Part shown: positions 1 to 29,319 of the stretch, one piece after another | How positions within the stretch are numbered: position 1 is the stretch's first letter | How the letters are laid out: each line of letters begins with the position of its first letter | The notes under the pieces: generated by a model | Database searches by the model: none | What the model was told of the DNA's origin: nothing | The model's input: only the letters and a program-made list of their open reading frames with translations | Source: a virus | Strand: one strand, 5' to 3' | Length of the DNA: 64,000 bases | IMG/VR virus record: IMGVR_UViG_3300040815_002027 | Made by a program: the position numbers and the translations under genes

Positions 1-2
1 AG

Positions 3-176
3 TTAAAAAAATTGCGTTTATCTGATGTTGTAAAATCGTTGCCTAAAGACACAGACGGATGCAATATAAACAGTGTTAGCAACTATTTTCACTGCCAAAG
101 AGAAGAAGAGATGGAAAGTAAATGTCAAACACAATGTGAACACTGTAAAGAATATTACAAACCATTAGAGCAATAA
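3..176 (+). CDS. 3' end of a small Cys-rich hypothetical protein (partial), reading through two GTT junction-like sites
   Basis: Manually translated open frame LKKLRLSDVVKS...CNINSVSNYFHC...CQTQCEHC...LEQ*; stop lies just before the AAC element at 187. Confidence 0.6.
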   Translation, partial: LKKLRLSDVVKSLPKDTDGCNINSVSNYFHCQREEEMESKCQTQCEHCKEYYKPLEQ

Positions 177-279
177 TATTACTGCCAACGTTTTGGCTAT
201 GTGCCGTATGACGATAGGAATATGGACATATAGCCGTTGTTGTGCATAGTAGCGGATTAATTAACTAAAGTTTGAATAA

Positions 280-465
280 ATGAAATTACAATTCTTAACA
301 ATCGAAATTGATGGAAAATGCTTTGACTTACCAAAGGATATGCAGATTCCGCAGAAAGGTAGCACTGTATTTATTGAGGGTAAAACAGGGATAGTTGAAA
401 ACATTCACTACCATATAGTAGACGGAAAAGTACACATGATAAGCATTTTTGCTACGAAAGGGTAG
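280..465 (+). CDS. hypothetical protein (cargo of GTT...AAC segment)
   Basis: ORF track, 61 aa; fills segment 239-479. Confidence 0.75.
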   Translation: MKLQFLTIEIDGKCFDLPKDMQIPQKGSTVFIEGKTGIVENIHYHIVDGKVHMISIFATKG

Positions 466-476
466 CTATTATGCAC

Positions 477-497
477 AACTATTTGTTAATCCAAGTT
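477..497. repeat. AACTATTTGTTAAYCCAAGTT conserved site, copy 1 (others at 1295-1315 and 11680-11700)
   Basis: Three copies, identical except one base, each directly after a gene 3' end finishing in AAC. Confidence 0.85.
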
Positions 498-520
498 ATT
501 AAGATAAAAAACAATAAAAG

Positions 521-682
521 ATGAAAAAGTACAGAATTACAATTAGAACCAGTTTTGGGTCATTTGAGATTGATGACATTGAAGCACAAGATGAGGATGA
601 GGCATTTGATAAGGCTTGTGAAGAGGCTAAAAAAGAAATTGATTGTGCAAAACTGGATGAAGTTTATGAGTACGATTCTTAA
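521..682 (+). CDS. small acidic hypothetical protein (53 aa, below ORF-track cutoff)
   Basis: MKKYRITIRTSFGSFEIDDIEAQDEDEAFDKACEEA...YDS*; A-rich leader. Confidence 0.75.
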   Translation: MKKYRITIRTSFGSFEIDDIEAQDEDEAFDKACEEAKKEIDCAKLDEVYEYDS

Positions 683-734
683 TGGTGCATAACGGTACAG
701 TATAACAGTAGTGCGGATAATTAAAAACAATAAT

Positions 735-941
735 ATGGATAAGTACACGAAAAAAGCGGTGTTTAGTTACTTAAAGAAGTATGACCACATAGCAAACGAA
801 GAGGACTTTATAGAAGTTACTGAATGGAAAAACGGTGAAGGATTTGATGTAGAGATAGTTGGAAAATTAAGTACAAGGTTTCAATTAACTTGGGGTGAAT
901 ACACCGCTTTGAAGAAGTTGGTTAAAAAACTTGATGGTTAG
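735..941 (+). CDS. hypothetical protein inside the loop of an AAC...GTT hairpin segment
   Basis: ORF 711-941; ATG 735 preferred; stop overlaps right IR arm. Confidence 0.75.
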   Translation: MDKYTKKAVFSYLKKYDHIANEEDFIEVTEWKNGEGFDVEIVGKLSTRFQLTWGEYTALKKLVKKLDG

Positions 942-1039
942 CATTACTGTTATACATTGTTGTAGTGTCGTTTTAATGCACTACAACGGCTACAGGTATG
1001 GCAATGTAATTTTACGGATTTGAAACACGGAAATTAATT

Positions 1040-1276
1040 ATGGACAAGATAGATAGATTAAAGCAATTACTTCTGACACACAGAACAGAAGATATAAGCA
1101 AATTAACATTTGAAGAAAGGATTGATTTTGACGATGCGTTTGCACAAGAGATAGTAAAATTATTTGCTATACCTGATGTTATAGAGCCGAAGGGAAAGTT
1201 AAAATGCGAATGTAAAGATGAGTGGATGGAAGATGTTATTTATGTTCAGTGTAGTAAGTGTGGTGAAAAGTACTAA
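1040..1276 (+). CDS. chimeric hypothetical protein with C-terminal Cys-rich zinc-ribbon-like module
   Basis: ORF crosses the GTT junction at 1178 (LFAIPD|V); CEC...CSKC at C-terminus. Confidence 0.75.
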   Translation: MDKIDRLKQLLLTHRTEDISKLTFEERIDFDDAFAQEIVKLFAIPDVIEPKGKLKCECKDEWMEDVIYVQCSKCGEKY

Positions 1277-1331
1277 CGCATTTTAATTCTCTATAACTAT
1301 TTGTTAATCCAAGTTATAAAAATAAGGAACA

Positions 1332-1700
1332 TTGGCAAATAAAAATAAAGACCTTAAATTAGTAAAAGTTGGTACTGTTCGAAAACATATGGATGCGCAT
1401 TTTAGAGATGAAATCAGCTACTCTGAAGCAGTTAATAGAATAAATAAAGAAGCAAATAAAAATATGAGAAATATGAAAGCAAAATTAACATTTATACTGC
1501 CAGAAGATAGGTACGAATATGACATGGCAGTCAATGGAAGCAATTGGCATCACGTTGCTTGGGAGATGTACCAATACTTGAGAGGCAAAACTAAATATGC
1601 ACCAGATGATGCTCATGAGGAGTACACTCAAGCAATGTCTGATTGTAAGGATAAGTTGTTTGAAATTATGCGAGAAAACGGAGTAGATTTTGACTTATGA
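1332..1700 (+). CDS. hypothetical phage protein
   Basis: ORF track; start uncertain (TTG, or internal ATG at MKAKLTF). Confidence 0.6.
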   Translation: MANKNKDLKLVKVGTVRKHMDAHFRDEISYSEAVNRINKEANKNMRNMKAKLTFILPEDRYEYDMAVNGSNWHHVAWEMYQYLRGKTKYAPDDAHEEYTQAMSDCKDKLFEIMRENGVDFDL

Positions 1701-2341
1701 GAAAATCAAAGTTTGACATATCATCACAAAAACCTTTGAGTTTTAGAATCAAAGAGTTTTTTAGAAGCCTACTTTTTTGGAAAGGTAGACAGAAAGGTGT
1801 GATTCATACCCGTAATATTATATTGGATGATTTCCGATATAAGGATGATTTCCGATACATCTTTTTTCCAAAAGATTTTGCTGAGAAATATGGATATTTG
1901 GGTACTTCTGTTTGGAATGAGGATAGTGTTTATTTCAAAGCACTTTATCCACTTGTTCTTGCATTAGATTATGAAGCAAAACCAAAATGGTGTCCAAGAT
2001 GGTTTCTTCGTTTTCTTGATGTATTTGGTTCTGATAGGTCAGTCGTTAGAGTTAGGAATTTGAGATTGCACAATTTACAAACAAAACTAACCAAAGGAAT
2101 TGCATTTGTAGATTGGAAAACAAAATGGAGTGATTACGATTTAAGAATCAGTATCCATGCACCTTCTCACTTACAAGATTTGGCTTCAGCCATTGAAGAA
2201 AAGTTTTATTCTAAAGGTAGACAGAAAGAGTTAGTAAAACAAATCAAACAGTTAGACCCAAATGCCTCTATAATATGGGGGAGTATAAAACGGTTAGAAG
2301 AACAATTAGAGAAGTTAGAAAATAAGGTTGTAGACTTATAA
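1697..2341 (+). CDS. hypothetical phage protein
   Basis: 214-aa ORF coupled to the upstream stop; internal DDFRYK-DDFRY duplication. Confidence 0.8.
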   Translation: MRKSKFDISSQKPLSFRIKEFFRSLLFWKGRQKGVIHTRNIILDDFRYKDDFRYIFFPKDFAEKYGYLGTSVWNEDSVYFKALYPLVLALDYEAKPKWCPRWFLRFLDVFGSDRSVVRVRNLRLHNLQTKLTKGIAFVDWKTKWSDYDLRISIHAPSHLQDLASAIEEKFYSKGRQKELVKQIKQLDPNASIIWGSIKRLEEQLEKLENKVVDL

Positions 2342-2378
2342 TACCTATAAATAAGGTTGTAGACTTATAATACCTATA
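2321..2378. repeat. perfect 29-bp tandem duplication AATAAGGTTGTAGACTTATAATACCTATA x2
   Basis: Direct inspection. Confidence 0.9.
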
Positions 2379-2408
2379 ATTGTGAATAACTACGATAAGT
2401 TTATTGTA

Positions 2409-2416
2409 TATTTATA
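2409..2416 (+). promoter_or_regulatory. putative phage late promoter TATTTATA (representative copy)
   Basis: Same octamer upstream of genes at 16946, 19811, 29386, 30531, 33417, 33864, 38696, 44143, 55228 (+) and 37583, 38470 (-). Confidence 0.6.
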
Positions 2417-2430
2417 TATAAACAGAATTA

Positions 2431-3135
2431 ATGAAAGACTTAAGAAAATTCTTATCTACAACTGCGAAACAGTATTTGAATGAACAAGCATCATTAGAAA
2501 ATGTGAAACTAAATGATAATTTTTGGGAATGGTTTGGTAATAGTAAAGTTGTTGATAAAGATGGGAATCCAATGATTTGTTATCATGGAACACCAAAAGG
2601 TGGTTTTACTGAATTTAAACCAAAAACTGGTTATAAAGGTAAATCAAAACAACAAGTTGATTTAGGTTCGCATTTTTCAATTGATAAAGAATATGCTTCA
2701 GGATATGCTGGTGATAAAAAAACATCAAAAGTTTATGAATCATTTTTGAGAATAGAAAATCCGTTATATACTAATCAAATGTTTTATAGAGAGGATAATG
2801 AAAAATTATTTCTCAATTATTTGAATTTTATAACCAAAACATTCAAATTAAAATTAGGTGGTGATTACTACTATAACAAAAATGGAGATAAGCAAAATGA
2901 ACCACAAAATATTATGCTCAATAGTTTTTTGATTGATAAAATACCATCAAATAAACTTTATAATAGTTTAATAGAATTTGGTTTTGATGGTGTTTTTCAC
3001 GAACCATATAATAGGGAGGGGTTGAGTCATTTTAAAAAACATCCATTGGCATACATAATTATAGAACCGAACCAAGTTAAATCAATTGATAATGATGGTA
3101 GTTGGGATGTAAATGATAATAATATTTATTCTTAA
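2431..3135 (+). CDS. ADP-ribosyltransferase-like protein (ART-PolyVal type)
   Basis: FWEWFGNSKVVDKDGNPMICYHGT, HFS..KEYASGYA, GFDGV, PNQVKSIDNDG motifs. Confidence 0.75.
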   Translation: MKDLRKFLSTTAKQYLNEQASLENVKLNDNFWEWFGNSKVVDKDGNPMICYHGTPKGGFTEFKPKTGYKGKSKQQVDLGSHFSIDKEYASGYAGDKKTSKVYESFLRIENPLYTNQMFYREDNEKLFLNYLNFITKTFKLKLGGDYYYNKNGDKQNEPQNIMLNSFLIDKIPSNKLYNSLIEFGFDGVFHEPYNREGLSHFKKHPLAYIIIEPNQVKSIDNDGSWDVNDNNIYS

Positions 3136-3266
3136 TTTTGTGTGGTGGAGAAAAAGTAAAACAAAAAGATTATAATCACGAAACTTAATACGAAGCACAA
3201 ACGTAGCATTGCATATAACTAATCGCTATCCGCATATTTATGGTGGATATACAACAAAAACAAATT

Positions 3267-4010
3267 ATGAAAACAGTTATATTAGGAGACATCCACGGAA
3301 CAAATTATTGGCAAACTATAATAAACTTCGAGAAACCTGATAGAGTTGTGTTCGTAGGAGATTATTTTGATTCTTTTGATATTCCTTACGATAAGCAGAT
3401 AGATAACTTCCTGGACCTCATAGAGTACAAGGAAAAAAGTGGGGGAGAAGTCATACTACTAATAGGTAACCACGACTATCATTATCTACCCTATATAAAC
3501 GACACATATACATCAGGCTATCAATCTAAATATGCTCATTTAATAAAACAAGTAGTAGAAACTAACTTACACCATCTACAGATAGCCTATCAGTTTGATG
3601 ACTTTCTAATAACACATGCAGGAGTAAGTGAAGAGTTTATGGATAATAACTTTGATAAGTGGTCTGAGGAAACTATAGTAGAACATCTTAATGATTTATT
3701 TAAATATAAACCTAATAAGTTTTTATTTAATGGTCTTGACCCTTATGGAGACGATACTTACCAGTCTCCTATATGGATAAGACCTAAAAGTCTTATGAGA
3801 GCAAACAAGACATCAGAACTAAAGAGAAGGTATGTTCAAGTAGTAGGGCATACTCAAGTAAAGGAAATTGATACGAAGGGAGGTGCTACGGGAGGAAGGT
3901 ATTATTTTATCGACTGCTTATCTACGAGTGGGCAGTATATGATCGTAGATGAAGATTCGTTTATTAATTTTAAAAGTTATAGAGATTATGATAAAGAAGA
4001 TACTGAGTAA
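3267..4010 (+). CDS. calcineurin-like metallophosphoesterase
   Basis: GDIHG, GDYFD, GNHD, THAG, VGHT motifs; ATG 3267 preferred. Confidence 0.9.
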   Translation: MKTVILGDIHGTNYWQTIINFEKPDRVVFVGDYFDSFDIPYDKQIDNFLDLIEYKEKSGGEVILLIGNHDYHYLPYINDTYTSGYQSKYAHLIKQVVETNLHHLQIAYQFDDFLITHAGVSEEFMDNNFDKWSEETIVEHLNDLFKYKPNKFLFNGLDPYGDDTYQSPIWIRPKSLMRANKTSELKRRYVQVVGHTQVKEIDTKGGATGGRYYFIDCLSTSGQYMIVDEDSFINFKSYRDYDKEDTE

Positions 4011-4200
4011 AGTTTGGAATTCAAAAATAATTTGTATATTGTTGCACACCAGGATAAAGATAAAGGACTTTCCTTATGAGATAGATCCTGTAACACAACG
4101 GCCCTACGGTAGGTATAAGTGTAAAATTTGCGGGAGAAGATACCTTGCCAATAATAGATTCGATTGGTATCAAATAGATATAAAGAAGAAACATAAATAA
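3988..4200 (+). CDS. hypothetical protein with CxxC
   Basis: ORF track 3949-4200; second ATG preferred. Confidence 0.55.
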   Translation: MIKKILSKVWNSKIICILLHTRIKIKDFPYEIDPVTQRPYGRYKCKICGRRYLANNRFDWYQIDIKKKHK

Positions 4201-4212
4201 ACTAATTATAGA

Positions 4213-4416
4213 ATGAACATAGGCGTACTAAAACATAACGAGACTGGATGGTACATCGAAACTCCAGATAGAGACTATAAACTACATCCTGAAGAAGAGA
4301 AGGTCTGTAACATGTATGTAGACTATTCTATAGACTGGATAGGAAAAACTGTAGAGTTCCGTATAAAGAAAGATAAAAAAATATCCTATGCTATTACAGA
4401 AAAGTTTGTAAAATAG
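4213..4416 (+). CDS. hypothetical protein
   Basis: ORF track. Confidence 0.7.
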   Translation: MNIGVLKHNETGWYIETPDRDYKLHPEEEKVCNMYVDYSIDWIGKTVEFRIKKDKKISYAITEKFVK

Positions 4417-4537
4417 AAAATAAAGATTTATATTAGCGTTTATGAAACACATTAAGCAAGCGTTACGACTATTACTACTATGTTGGCTTATTGTATTTCT
4501 ATTATTTATATTATTAATTAACTTAAATTAAAAGGTT

Positions 4538-4714
4538 ATGGCATTATTTTTTTTCGGTTTGGGAGCAGGAGTTTCTCTGTCGTTGGTTTTATCGTTTATT
4601 GGTATAAGGTCTTTAATTTTATCTAAAAAGAACAGCTCTTCTATAGAGGTGTTAGAGAATGACATTAGTTACAAGCTATCTATGATGCAAAAGCAGATAG
4701 CCAGACTTAAGTAA
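4538..4714 (+). CDS. small membrane-anchored protein (58 aa)
   Basis: MALFFFGLGAGVSLSLVLSFIG... manually translated. Confidence 0.6.
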   Translation: MALFFFGLGAGVSLSLVLSFIGIRSLILSKKNSSSIEVLENDISYKLSMMQKQIARLK

Positions 4715-4779
4715 GATTTTATGTGGGGACAAACTGTCCCCATTTGTTTTGAACTTTAATTTTAATAAAATAATTAACT

Positions 4780-5268
4780 ATGAATTTATTTTTTTTCCTT
4801 GTTGGTGTTAGCTGTTGCTTAATAGTTCTTCTCATTATCAACGCTGTTATTTTGCGAAACGATATAAATAGACTTAGGAAATCAGCATACAGAATGGAGA
4901 AGATGATTGAAGATGTTAATAATTCTTCGGACACTATGGCTATAACGTTAGAGAATAGACAAGATCGTTTAGCAGAAAGTCTCTCTCGCAGAATAGATGA
5001 TTTGATTGCTACTGTAGATGCTAATGAAAAAGATCTCTACAGAGCCTTATCGAACAAAGAGTGTGACATCGATACCAGATTTAATTCTAGTATAAATGGT
5101 ATTTACACTTCTTTAAAAGATATAGAAAATGTTGTTGATAACAACTCCAAAGAGGTTTATAACTCTTTAGATAAGTTAGAAGACAGGTTTGATAATAGGA
5201 TAGATACTGCTATGAAAATCTTTTATGAAGATTTACAAAGTCTAGAAGGTTCTATTGATAAGGCTTAA
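4780..5268 (+). CDS. membrane-anchored coiled-coil protein
   Basis: N-terminal hydrophobic helix followed by heptad-like acidic region. Confidence 0.8.
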   Translation: MNLFFFLVGVSCCLIVLLIINAVILRNDINRLRKSAYRMEKMIEDVNNSSDTMAITLENRQDRLAESLSRRIDDLIATVDANEKDLYRALSNKECDIDTRFNSSINGIYTSLKDIENVVDNNSKEVYNSLDKLEDRFDNRIDTAMKIFYEDLQSLEGSIDKA

Positions 5269-5325
5269 TACTCATGCTTTTTTTATACGTGGGAGGCTAG
5301 TCCTCCTACTTTTTAAATTTAAATT

Positions 5326-5646
5326 ATGATTAATACGTTACAATACTATTCTGAAAAATCTAAGTTTTTAGTATTCAAATACCATAGAGTAATTTTTGAT
5401 GATCTACTTTTTAAAGGCTGGTCTGCGCATAATAATTATAGAGAGGTTTTATCTTTATACATCTATCTTATGAATGTTTACTTTAGAGTCCCTTTAAACT
5501 TATTAGCATCTACTCTTCCGATTGAGGAGTGTAGGTGTAAACTATATCTGGATAGTATTAAGATTTCATATATAACTAAAATATCTGAAAAATTAGACAA
5601 TTATTCTGAACAGTATGATATAACTTTAGCTAAGTTGTTTAAGTAG
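5326..5646 (+). CDS. hypothetical protein
   Basis: ORF track. Confidence 0.6.
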   Translation: MINTLQYYSEKSKFLVFKYHRVIFDDLLFKGWSAHNNYREVLSLYIYLMNVYFRVPLNLLASTLPIEECRCKLYLDSIKISYITKISEKLDNYSEQYDITLAKLFK

Positions 5647-5755
5647 CCCAAACAAACTCTTCGCATCTTAGTTTGTTTTTAAATGTTTTTTTGTGAAAGG
5701 GTGAGGTAAAGTTCTCACCCTATTTAGAATCCAAAAAAGTTGCCGAGAAGCCCTA

Positions 5756-6025
5756 ATGAAAAATATACATACACTACAACTACATAATAAACTAATAATA
5801 GATAATAACACTTCAGTACTAAAAGTACCCAATGGACTAATATATACTATAAAGACAATAGAAACTATAACTAATACTAAAGATAATTCTAAATACACTA
5901 TAACAAATACTAATATAGTGTATGTACCTTATACTAATAACACTGATACTATAACAAATAAGGATACAGATAATAAACCTAACCCAGATATAGATCTACC
6001 AGATAGTCAATACACTATAATATAA
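5756..6025 (+). CDS. T/N-rich hypothetical protein
   Basis: ORF track; low-complexity, G-poor DNA. Confidence 0.45.
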   Translation: MKNIHTLQLHNKLIIDNNTSVLKVPNGLIYTIKTIETITNTKDNSKYTITNTNIVYVPYTNNTDTITNKDTDNKPNPDIDLPDSQYTII

Positions 6026-10418: not shown

Positions 10419-11078
10419 ATGCCAAACTGGTGTTCAAATTACGTAACGATTTACGGAGAAGATTTCTCCAAAGTAAAAGATTTACTTTTAACTAAAACTG
10501 ATGATGATGGTCTTTTCGAGCATACTGTAGGTATTGTAAAGGAAGGCTATTTAAGAGATGAAAAGTATAAAAATTTAGGAGAGGTTATGCTTGATAACAA
10601 ATACTTTAACTGGTACGACCACAACATAAACGAGTATGGTACAAAGTGGGATGTTAATGAGATTTCATTTGATGTTTTTGCCGACCCATCTGATGAGCAT
10701 ATTTCCTTTAGTTTTGAGTCCGCTTGGTCTCCTCCTTTAGAATGGGCAAGAAAACTGTCAGATAAGTTTAAAGTAATTGTGGTAATAGAGTATGCTGAAA
10801 ATGGTTGTGATTTTGGAGGTAGGTCAATATTTGAGAATGGAGATGAAAAGGAATTTGCACAATACACATACCTTAACTGGATGTTAGTTGATGATACGAG
10901 TGGAACTAGGTTTATGGAGGAAATAGAGTACATAACATCTCATATGGACAAAGATGAGTTTGAAGAGTATAAGCAGGATATTATAGAGTCTGCTGAAGAA
11001 CAGTTAGACTCTACTTTTGTAAAGACTGTTGTGGATGTATTTGATGAAATAGAAAAGAGTATGTTTGAAGAATCTTAA
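10419..11078 (+). CDS. DUF1281/YubB-like ferredoxin-fold protein
   Basis: MPNWCSN start, WY..N...YGTKWD, FESAWSPP, YAE.G.DF.G motifs. Confidence 0.8.
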   Translation: MPNWCSNYVTIYGEDFSKVKDLLLTKTDDDGLFEHTVGIVKEGYLRDEKYKNLGEVMLDNKYFNWYDHNINEYGTKWDVNEISFDVFADPSDEHISFSFESAWSPPLEWARKLSDKFKVIVVIEYAENGCDFGGRSIFENGDEKEFAQYTYLNWMLVDDTSGTRFMEEIEYITSHMDKDEFEEYKQDIIESAEEQLDSTFVKTVVDVFDEIEKSMFEES

Positions 11079-28221: not shown

Positions 28222-29319
28222 ATGACTAAATTAAAGATATTATTAGAACAAGTTTTAAAAGAGCGTATAACTGATGAAGTCTATCACCTGACTACCACAC
28301 GAAGAGCTTTGTCTATTTTAGAGTCAGATACTTTTAAAGCATCTACTGTATTTGGAACATATTTAGATACGAAACAATTAATTAGAGAAATATTAAAGGA
28401 GAAAACAATTAATAATTTGGGATTAATGACCCAAATATTATATCATGGCACAAAGTATGAATTTGATAAATTTGATTTAAATTTTTTTAATAGTGGTTCT
28501 GGAGATGGTGGATGGCTAGGTTATGGTATTTATTTAACTAATGATTATGAATATGCTGAATCATATGGTAATGTTTTGGAGTGTAAGATTAATATTAAAA
28601 CCCCATATATTATTTCAGAATTTAGTTATAGTAGAAGTCCAGAAAAATTAGCCAATGAATTAGGTGTTAAAAATGCTAGAGAAATTACAAAAAAATTAAT
28701 AAAAGAGGGCTATGATTCAGTTGTTTTAACCTATCCAGATAAAGGTTACACTAAAGACGATGAATATAGTGAATTTATAGAGATATGCGTTTTTAATCCA
28801 AATGATATTCAAATAATGAATAATTTAAATGAACAACAAATATCCTTACATAAAAGTGAGTTGTTTGCCTTAGAAGATGATATACTAAAAAACATTCCAG
28901 ATGGTTACTTATATCATGGTTCAAATAACATATCTTACTTTAATGATACGTCTGATATAGATACATCAAACAATACGGTTAATGCTAAAAGTAAATATTT
29001 ATTTTTAACACCAAACAAGTTAACAGCATTCAATTATTCTACAATAAATAATGGTATGAATGTTAAAATAAGTGATAAAAGTGGTGTTTTATCGTTTGCT
29101 TTAAAAAAAGCTAAAGGTAAGAAATTAACATCAAACGAACTAAAATATAGTAATATGGTTGAGTTTGAAGAGATATTAGATTATTACAAAAACAAAGGCT
29201 ATGATTATGTGATAATAGTACCAGATGGTAGAAACTATGCTATACTAAATCCTAGTATATTAAAAATAGTAAGTAAAACATATACATATGATATTATTAA
29301 TAATCAAACTATAAATTAA
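28222..29319 (+). CDS. chimeric protein: leader plus two ART-like domains
   Basis: LYHGT..GYGIYLT..YAESYG..GYDSV and LYHGS..LFLT..AFNYS..GYDYV. Confidence 0.7.
   Translation: MTKLKILLEQVLKERITDEVYHLTTTRRALSILESDTFKASTVFGTYLDTKQLIREILKEKTINNLGLMTQILYHGTKYEFDKFDLNFFNSGSGDGGWLGYGIYLTNDYEYAESYGNVLECKINIKTPYIISEFSYSRSPEKLANELGVKNAREITKKLIKEGYDSVVLTYPDKGYTKDDEYSEFIEICVFNPNDIQIMNNLNEQQISLHKSELFALEDDILKNIPDGYLYHGSNNISYFNDTSDIDTSNNTVNAKSKYLFLTPNKLTAFNYSTINNGMNVKISDKSGVLSFALKKAKGKKLTSNELKYSNMVEFEEILDYYKNKGYDYVIIVPDGRNYAILNPSILKIVSKTYTYDIINNQTIN

Follow-up and report, generated by a model that had tools for sequence, protein, structure and literature searches.

A two-module gene of an uncultured phage is read across two hairpin-bounded DNA units that meet at a GTT codon

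The DNA analyzed here, below called the window, is a stretch of 64,000 nucleotides that begins 2843 nt into a 70.8-kb uncultured viral contig (L001; IMG/VR UViG 3300040856_002293). Its G+C content is about 31%, its genes lie almost all on one strand, and it contains no tRNAs. Megablast of positions 1–6000 and tblastn of the 78-aa protein described below gave no useful match among deposited phages. Most of the large ORFs scanned in the window are without a family match: of the 20 ORFs of at least 150 aa between positions 10419 and 36645 that were compared with PHROGs, 17 were unmatched at E ≤ 1e-5 and the remaining three matched families of unknown function. As far as can be judged from such searches, the phage lineage is largely uncharted; its host is probably a member of the Bacteroidota.

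Several features away from the locus of interest were seen in passing. Genes 2431–3135 and 28222–29319 match the polyvalent-protein ADP-ribosyltransferase domain PF18760 (68 and 54.5 bits, respectively), and in contig L006 a PF18760-type gene adjoins that contig's copy of the two-module gene. The stop codon of ORF 1697–2341 is spanned by a perfect tandem duplication of 29 nt (2320–2377, family D10). Between 6414 and 7931 a segment is repeated about 1 kb apart, comprising a 56-nt and a 103-nt family (D1 and D2, 87–93% identity); the same region holds the short repeats D4–D6, has a negative AT skew and differs in strand composition.

The first 1.3 kb of the window consist of small ORFs, and Pfam and PHROGs assign a family neither to ORF 1040–1276 nor to its small neighbors. 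ORF 1040–1276 (all features of the window given here are on the plus strand) belongs to the accessory early region of an uncultured phage and is composed of two modules. It starts with ATG and encodes a fusion protein of 78 aa, of which residues 1–47 form a helical N module and residues 48–78 a Cys-rich C module (CxC...CxxC). The gene lies across two hairpin units. The first, an AAC...GTT unit (985–1180) recognized by an inverted-repeat search and by a 22-bp stem in the fold, has AAC 985–987 and GTT 1178–1180 as terminal triplets and contains, in this order, a left arm in the 5′ leader (993–1015), the ATG at 1040, a variable N core and a right arm (1154–1175) that is read ...VKLFAIP. The repeat search had returned only the pair 993–1004/1164–1175, which the fold lengthens to the 22 bp between 993–1015 and 1154–1175. 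The second, a GTT...AAC unit (1178–1297), carries the startless C module with its stop codon at 1274–1276, and is closed by an outer helix (1178–1186/1289–1297) and an inner helix (1194–1208/1277–1291) with a bulge (1187–1198) that harbors a CGAAG box. DNA alignments delimit a 14-nt junction common to all pairings (1167–1180), in which the last bases of the right arm are followed by a spacer of 2 nt and by GTT.

RNAfold of positions 950–1305 gave exactly three abutting domains (959–987, 993–1175 and 1178–1297; z = −2.7). AAC 985–987 both ends the hairpin 959–987 and begins the N unit, and GTT 1178–1180 both ends the N unit and begins the C unit. The DNA here is built as a series of units, each bounded by a hairpin and abutting the next at an invariant AAC or GTT triplet. 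The first-pass annotation had claimed that ORF 1040–1276 starts inside a tile of one class (class B, the AAC...GTT unit) and ends in a tile of another (class A, the GTT...AAC unit), reading through the right arm as TTT GCT ATA CCT GAT GTT, and that the Cys-rich part has no start of its own. The two tiles were confirmed, the six codons are in frame at 1163–1180, and there is no usable start before the first Cys pair of the C half, the sole in-frame ATG being residue 63.

Both halves of the ORF are under purifying selection, with pN/pS of 0.1–0.2 for the N half and of 0–0.03 for the C half (C1), where in three comparisons pS was 0.36–0.56 and pN 0–0.019, corresponding to 5–7.5 synonymous vs 0–1.5 non-synonymous differences; the other two frames are closed. 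By this substitution pattern both halves are coding. What the protein does is not known. The C half of the window, with its CxC...CxxC pattern, has no Pfam match; C modules of relatives fall just under zinc-ribbon cut-offs (e.g., PF08271, 27.5 bits vs 29). A language-model search for look-alikes yielded only weak leads, which were zinc-ribbon clusters with scores of at most 0.88, AlphaFold, run on the single sequence, gave a poor model with two N-terminal helices (pLDDT 48.6), and no Rfam family matched.

A search of 5.8 billion proteins retrieved 15 relatives of the 78-aa protein, all of them from metagenome contigs. Across their alignment residues 1–47 are 73–98% identical, and beyond ...AIP-x-V the tails are unrelated, most of them with two Cys pairs. 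That each half would be found with other partners, always joined at one D|V codon pair, had been predicted. Searched separately, the N half was indeed found joined to at least 12 unrelated C types in phage and metagenome contigs, and the C half was found behind a different N module in contig L005, with 95% nucleotide identity. The join is always at the same GTT, read as Val in the same frame; the preceding codon is not fixed and encodes D, V, N or A.

With residues 39–78 as query, the window's tail with the entire C half was retrieved in only three other clusters; a fourth match, P0003, is a truncated form of 61 aa, and in P0011 (51 aa), one of the three, the window's C half stands behind a different front part of 18 residues. 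When the N half was used for an exhaustive profile search, it turned up on its own (P0014 and P0020), within a protein of 132 aa (P0019), and with further tails. The second N module (N2), that of L005, carries another zinc-ribbon tail in L008 (939–1148), the two sequences being alike through the same 14-nt junction and diverging thereafter. In sum, N1 pairs with C1 and with many other C modules, N2 pairs with C1 and with one other, and the C3-like and "...NCG" families of C modules have two to four different N partners each. The DNA of C1 is 88–95% identical behind its two unrelated N modules, with mostly synonymous differences; the pairing of C1 with N2 depends on a single 659-bp contig (L005). 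The pairings recur in independent samples and assemblers (P0005 in 14 contigs, P0002 in eight, P0008 in five), and L010/L011 as well as L012/L013 show the same pairings from different runs.

To locate breakpoints, the entire 64-kb window was compared with each of the contigs by blastn. Contigs L002–L004 and L010/L011 share with the window only 985–1180/1200, while L015–L017 share exactly 985–1297, which there stands in another setting, with an N6 methylase on its upstream and DNA polymerase A on its downstream side, homology being absent past AAC 1297. L005 shares 1167–1277, as far as the L005 contig reaches. DNA identity is about 97% up to GTT 1178–1180 and is gone within some 20 nt after it. 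The ends of the homology blocks are, at alignment resolution, AAC 985, GTT 1180, AAC 1297 and AAC 189, so that the test for cassette edges at a triplet (the G|TT criterion of integrons) is met. There is one exception: the block around gene 735–941 that is shared with L007 ends inside the arms. In L002 (3490–3984) an upstream ORF of 164 aa crosses AAC into the left arm of the following AAC...GTT unit, from which its last 12 residues come; this is a second type of read-through across a unit edge.

The AAC...GTT unit behaves as a chassis. A scan of metagenomes for the right arm turned up loci whose leader arm and last 11 codons are near-identical DNA, without any synonymous change over 22 columns, and whose N cores between these arms cannot be aligned (L150, L168, L219, L249 and a 218-aa protein in L242). 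Further cases came from a scan of viral contigs (L034, L094, L099, L122, L132 and L137) and from contigs of metagenome-assembled genomes mostly binned as Bacteroidota (L262, L268, L273, L274, L288 and L290). The same nucleotide-conserved arm, invariably read in one frame, terminates at least 20 unrelated N cores. Across loci with unalignable N cores the chassis arms are about 95–100% identical; they pair as a 22-bp stem, and conserved flanks extend them to roughly 33–45 nt. In an alignment of 12 loci 97.6% of the stem pair cells are paired and AAC and GTT are invariant; at four stem pairs both partners have changed in a compensatory way, and 11 of the 12 loci retain two G.U pairs. Some of the compensatory changes replace an amino acid (in L008, Ala to Thr; in L012, Pro to His; in L006, Asp to Ala), which indicates that the stem outranks the peptide.

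An exact 14-mer scan of viral contigs for the junction returned mostly chance matches and repeat proteins of the IPDVPEEP type, from which about ten true users of the junction were chosen by context. Within the window the junction motif is not above chance (14 matches at up to two mismatches vs eight expected, only two of them meaningful), and the case therefore rests on structure and on the comparison between contigs, where the result goes far past what chance would give. One 5.9-kb contig binned as Flavobacteriaceae (L290:3561–4790, minus strand) has three junction-type two-module genes in tandem.

The GTT...AAC units have module-specific arms; some carry whole genes, others carry startless, mostly zinc-ribbon-like modules that open at GTT. 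Of 21 C modules, 18 have a module-specific helix of 8–17 bp that brings the junction GTT together with an AAC located 1–21 nt past the stop codon and so closes the stretch between them. In a stricter closure test 17 of 18 junction GTT codons reached a helix of at least 8 bp, vs 16% of 389 other in-frame GTT codons. Nine modules use the TAA within their terminal ...TAAC as stop codon. The claim that the junctions are frame-locked was supported in this form, the frame being fixed at both ends, by the GTT read as Val at the 5′ end and by the stop within ...TAAC in these nine modules. Since the frame of the junction is fixed, a chassis placed before any startless GTT...AAC unit yields an in-frame fusion protein.

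The mismatches in these helices are mostly G.T (ten, vs two A.C), which indicates that it is the sense strand that folds, either as RNA or as single-stranded DNA. A subfamily of the C units has a conserved GCGAAGC box in the 5′ bulge, usually read R-S-E-Q, from which the recurring linker VVGRSEQL arises. In C1 two compensating 1-nt indels shift the bases of the box into another frame, and what is conserved is therefore the nucleic acid and not the peptide. GCGAAGC forms an unusually stable DNA mini-hairpin (PMC13037366).

Further units lie upstream of ORF 1040–1276. ORF 3–176 is the 3′ part of a 101-aa ORF of the same construction (L001:2714–3019) and contains a variant of the right arm with GTT 27–29, followed by a 48-nt in-frame insert. 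The first-pass annotation had seen two in-frame signatures in this ORF with GTT read as Val, and GTT 27–29 and GTT 75–77 are in frame, as it stated. The insert (30–77, 16 codons, ending in the second GTT) is absent from the homologous gene in L019. Programmed ribosomal bypassing was weighed as an explanation of the GTT...GTT insert, and it was rejected on the grounds that no stop follows the take-off codon and that the frame stays open. The second GTT opens the GTT...AAC unit 75–189, the Cys-rich C module of the 101-aa ORF, and homology to L019 stops at its AAC (187–189). The arms of this unit form a perfect 8-bp pair in L019 and have two mismatches in the window. In P0004 the Cys-rich C family of the 101-aa ORF is joined to the N module of ORF 1040–1276.

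A further GTT...AAC unit (239–479) carries a whole gene (280–465) with its own start between 15-nt arms with one G.T mismatch (239–253/465–479, pair I9). The inverted repeat around gene 735–941 (700–955, arms 700–714/941–955, pair I7) likewise has 15-nt arms with one G.T mismatch; L007 shares the gene, and its arms differ from those of the window yet are complementary to each other. The hairpin 959–987 is a minimal, empty GTT...AAC unit with 9-bp arms, whose AAC doubles as the first triplet of the next unit; it is homologous to L094:2555–2592, where the GCGAAGC box is still present and a recombinase gene follows 55 nt downstream. The AAC of the C unit is followed by a conserved, non-palindromic site of about 23 nt (1295–1317) with a second copy at 478–500 (family D3), and D3-related sites also follow units upstream of the window (L001:2265 and 2648). 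When the 5′ and 3′ flanks of all small genes were compared, complementarity reached the ≤5% level in 11 of 54 (Mann-Whitney p = 0.10), an enrichment in the tail only. Not every gene is hairpin-bounded.

How modules come to be exchanged between such units is a matter of inference, without read-level or experimental evidence. We favor recombination at hairpins in the manner of integrons and place homologous recombination at the conserved arms second. For the gene as a whole, our reading is that of a two-module gene made of hairpin units with integron-like, structure-guided exchange, to which we assign a probability of about 0.55. The integron-like mode is favored by unit edges that fall at triplets without flanking homology, by arms that are module-specific and covary, by the strand bias of the pairing, and by the DNA-type hairpin box. 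Recombination would be steered by the fold of the sense strand and would exchange units through crossovers at or next to the GTT and AAC triplets, in resemblance to integron attC sites; the enzyme might be an Xer-like tyrosine recombinase provided by some phages or by the host. The use of such a system could be the rapid diversification of small early proteins, which perhaps bind host or defense factors. It had been inferred earlier that tile exchange creates fusion proteins; that the halves assort independently agrees with this, but neither ongoing exchange nor the enzyme responsible has been demonstrated.

One difficulty of the integron-like reading is the enzyme. The 70.8-kb contig from which the window comes, only 43% complete, yielded no tyrosine recombinase (PF00589), and none of the larger ORFs compared with PHROGs (20) or with Pfam (10) matches a family with a recombinase or replication function. 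Among related viral records only about one in 10–11 has a PF00589 recombinase (L094), and among the records that are at least 90% complete it is one in five. L094, which counts in favor of the reading, is a complete 74.8-kb phage with direct terminal repeats; at 1351–1875 and 2555–3481 it shows empty units of both types (GTT...AAC, then AAC...GTT) directly followed by one that carries a gene, with the minimal unit beside the recombinase gene. Its recombinase (277 aa) is of the Xer/IntI type and scores below all curated cut-offs (TIGR02249, 147.7 bits vs 265). Other points also speak against the reading: the chassis arms have the length and the conservation that ordinary homologous recombination requires, the polarity of the GTT...AAC units is opposite to that of attC, and the edge of the 735–941 block is off the triplet. 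Moreover, it is conceivable in principle that template switching, and not selection, keeps complementary arms alike.

In the strongest rival the same modules are exchanged when conserved arms recombine by ordinary homology, in the way of the PeSLs of T4-type phages (see below), the hairpins have a role at the RNA level in early transcripts (processing, stability or translation), and GTT and AAC are merely the ends of conserved sequence. PeSL-mediated shuffling is documented (PMC2839356, PMC4122927), arms of about 95–100% identity around unalignable N cores are what such recombination needs, the missing recombinase in most related phages would cease to be a problem, and the conserved G.U pairs are compatible with an RNA fold. 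We consider this explanation less likely than the integron-like one, although it remains serious. Past AAC 1297 and AAC 189 there is no shared sequence in which a second crossover could take place, and the arms of the C units, being module-specific and only 8–17 bp long, offer too little and too variable sequence for homologous exchange. An RNA stem of 22 bp within an ORF would more probably impair its expression, the units showed no promoter signal of the sigma-70 type and no terminator, and the GCGAAGC box is a hairpin motif of the DNA type.

That the pairings are chimeric assemblies joined at the shared arms had to be considered because all relatives are metagenome contigs and the L005 pairing was seen only once, on 659 bp, but this is very improbable: the same pairings were obtained from independent samples and assemblers, the shared arms of 15–45 nt are shorter than the reads and than the final k-mers given in the contig names (k119, k141), and the C1 copy of L005 has synonymous differences of its own. 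Still less credible is an origin without any exchange, by fast divergence of the C terminus under diversifying selection behind a conserved N domain; the protein alignment, with its conserved N half and variable C half, could be taken this way, but the change is a step and not a gradient, C families recur behind unrelated N cores, and the C1 DNA remained nearly the same behind its two N modules. Nor is there much to be said for the N module alone as the real product with the sequence after GTT as incidental read-through: versions of the N module with tails of only 4–16 residues do exist (P0013, P0014 and L168), but the low pN/pS of C1 and its two closed alternative frames, the recurrence of Cys pairs across unrelated C modules, and the sub-threshold zinc-ribbon matches of the relatives speak against it.

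The observations can be extended, as a tentative proposal in which we have less than even confidence, to Bacteroidota phages in general. They would possess an integron-related, structure-guided system that acts inside reading frames, in which hairpin chassis and startless C modules are joined at GTT; this would be a prokaryotic form of exon-like shuffling that generates combinatorial two-domain early proteins, possibly as a means of keeping up with host defenses. Domain shuffling is usually inferred from old and blurred events, whereas here the swap points are exact, marked by nucleotides and fixed in frame, and dozens of natural pairings of front and back halves can be read directly. Should a recombinase act on the hairpins, they would amount to a gene-capture system for protein modules as well as for whole genes, and the concept of the integron would then cover phages and coding sequence, too. 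Short peptides such as ...VKLFAIPDV and VVGRSEQL recur in otherwise unrelated small phage proteins because they are translated recombination or structure arms, and the arms can serve as a handle in searches for accessory, possibly counter-defense genes of uncultured Bacteroidota phages.

Among known systems integrons come closest. Like attC sites, the units are imperfect hairpins that vary in sequence and retain structure, the AAC/GTT triplet and a bulge or spacer in the arms; the pairing is strand-biased, the swap edges are at the triplet, and arrays can exist without an integrase nearby. Some integron cassettes are startless and are translated as fusions from a start in attI. The AAC...GTT unit even has the polarity of attC, invariant triplets, an asymmetric spacer and an inner stem, but at 196 nt it is longer than attC (57–141 nt), carries the start of an ORF in its loop, and has conserved arms. 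Identity of the units with classical attC sites was rejected on polarity (GTT...AAC being opposite) and on size. Also unlike in integrons, no IntI was found, the recombinase of the sole relative that has one being a short, Xer-like enzyme under the integron-integrase cut-off; two unit types of opposite polarity alternate and share triplets, with the cargo inside the hairpin loop; one unit type has sequence-conserved arms; and one swap point lies in a fixed frame within ORFs, so that protein halves are shuffled and not whole genes. Clusters of attC sites lacking an integrase (CALINs) have been reported in phages, including a Polaribacter phage; the portion of that publication on which we rely does not describe in-frame junctions in its account of phage attC sites (Qi et al., 2023; PMC9892861).

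PeSLs of T4-type phages likewise occur in hyperplastic early regions rich in small ORFan genes, where short conserved stem-loops mark the points of exchange (PMC2839356, PMC4122927). They differ in being intergenic cassettes of promoter and terminator that recombine by homology and move whole genes, whereas here many arms are module-specific and one junction is intra-coding and frame-locked. Nine promoter-like sites were counted vs 12.3 expected, in a scan that omits Bacteroidota-type promoters, and two terminator-like sites vs 0.9 expected, neither of them at a unit. Exchange by homology as in PeSLs is possible for the chassis arms and leaves the edges at the module-specific arms unexplained.

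Ogata and co-workers are said to have found in 2000 that palindromic elements of Rickettsia are inserted in frame in protein genes. These, too, are palindromic DNA translated within proteins with the frame intact, but they are one repeat family without cargo, whereas here palindromic arms bracket variable modules and join two domains. Polymorphic toxins (CdiA with its VENN motif) and the internal proteins of T4 with their N-terminal targeting sequence combine a conserved N part, a short conserved junction and a replaceable C-terminal module, and in this architecture they resemble the product of ORF 1040–1276. Their junctions are conserved as peptide and recombine by homology; here, in contrast, the junction is a nucleic-acid stem in which compensatory changes override amino acids, and the N part is replaceable as well.
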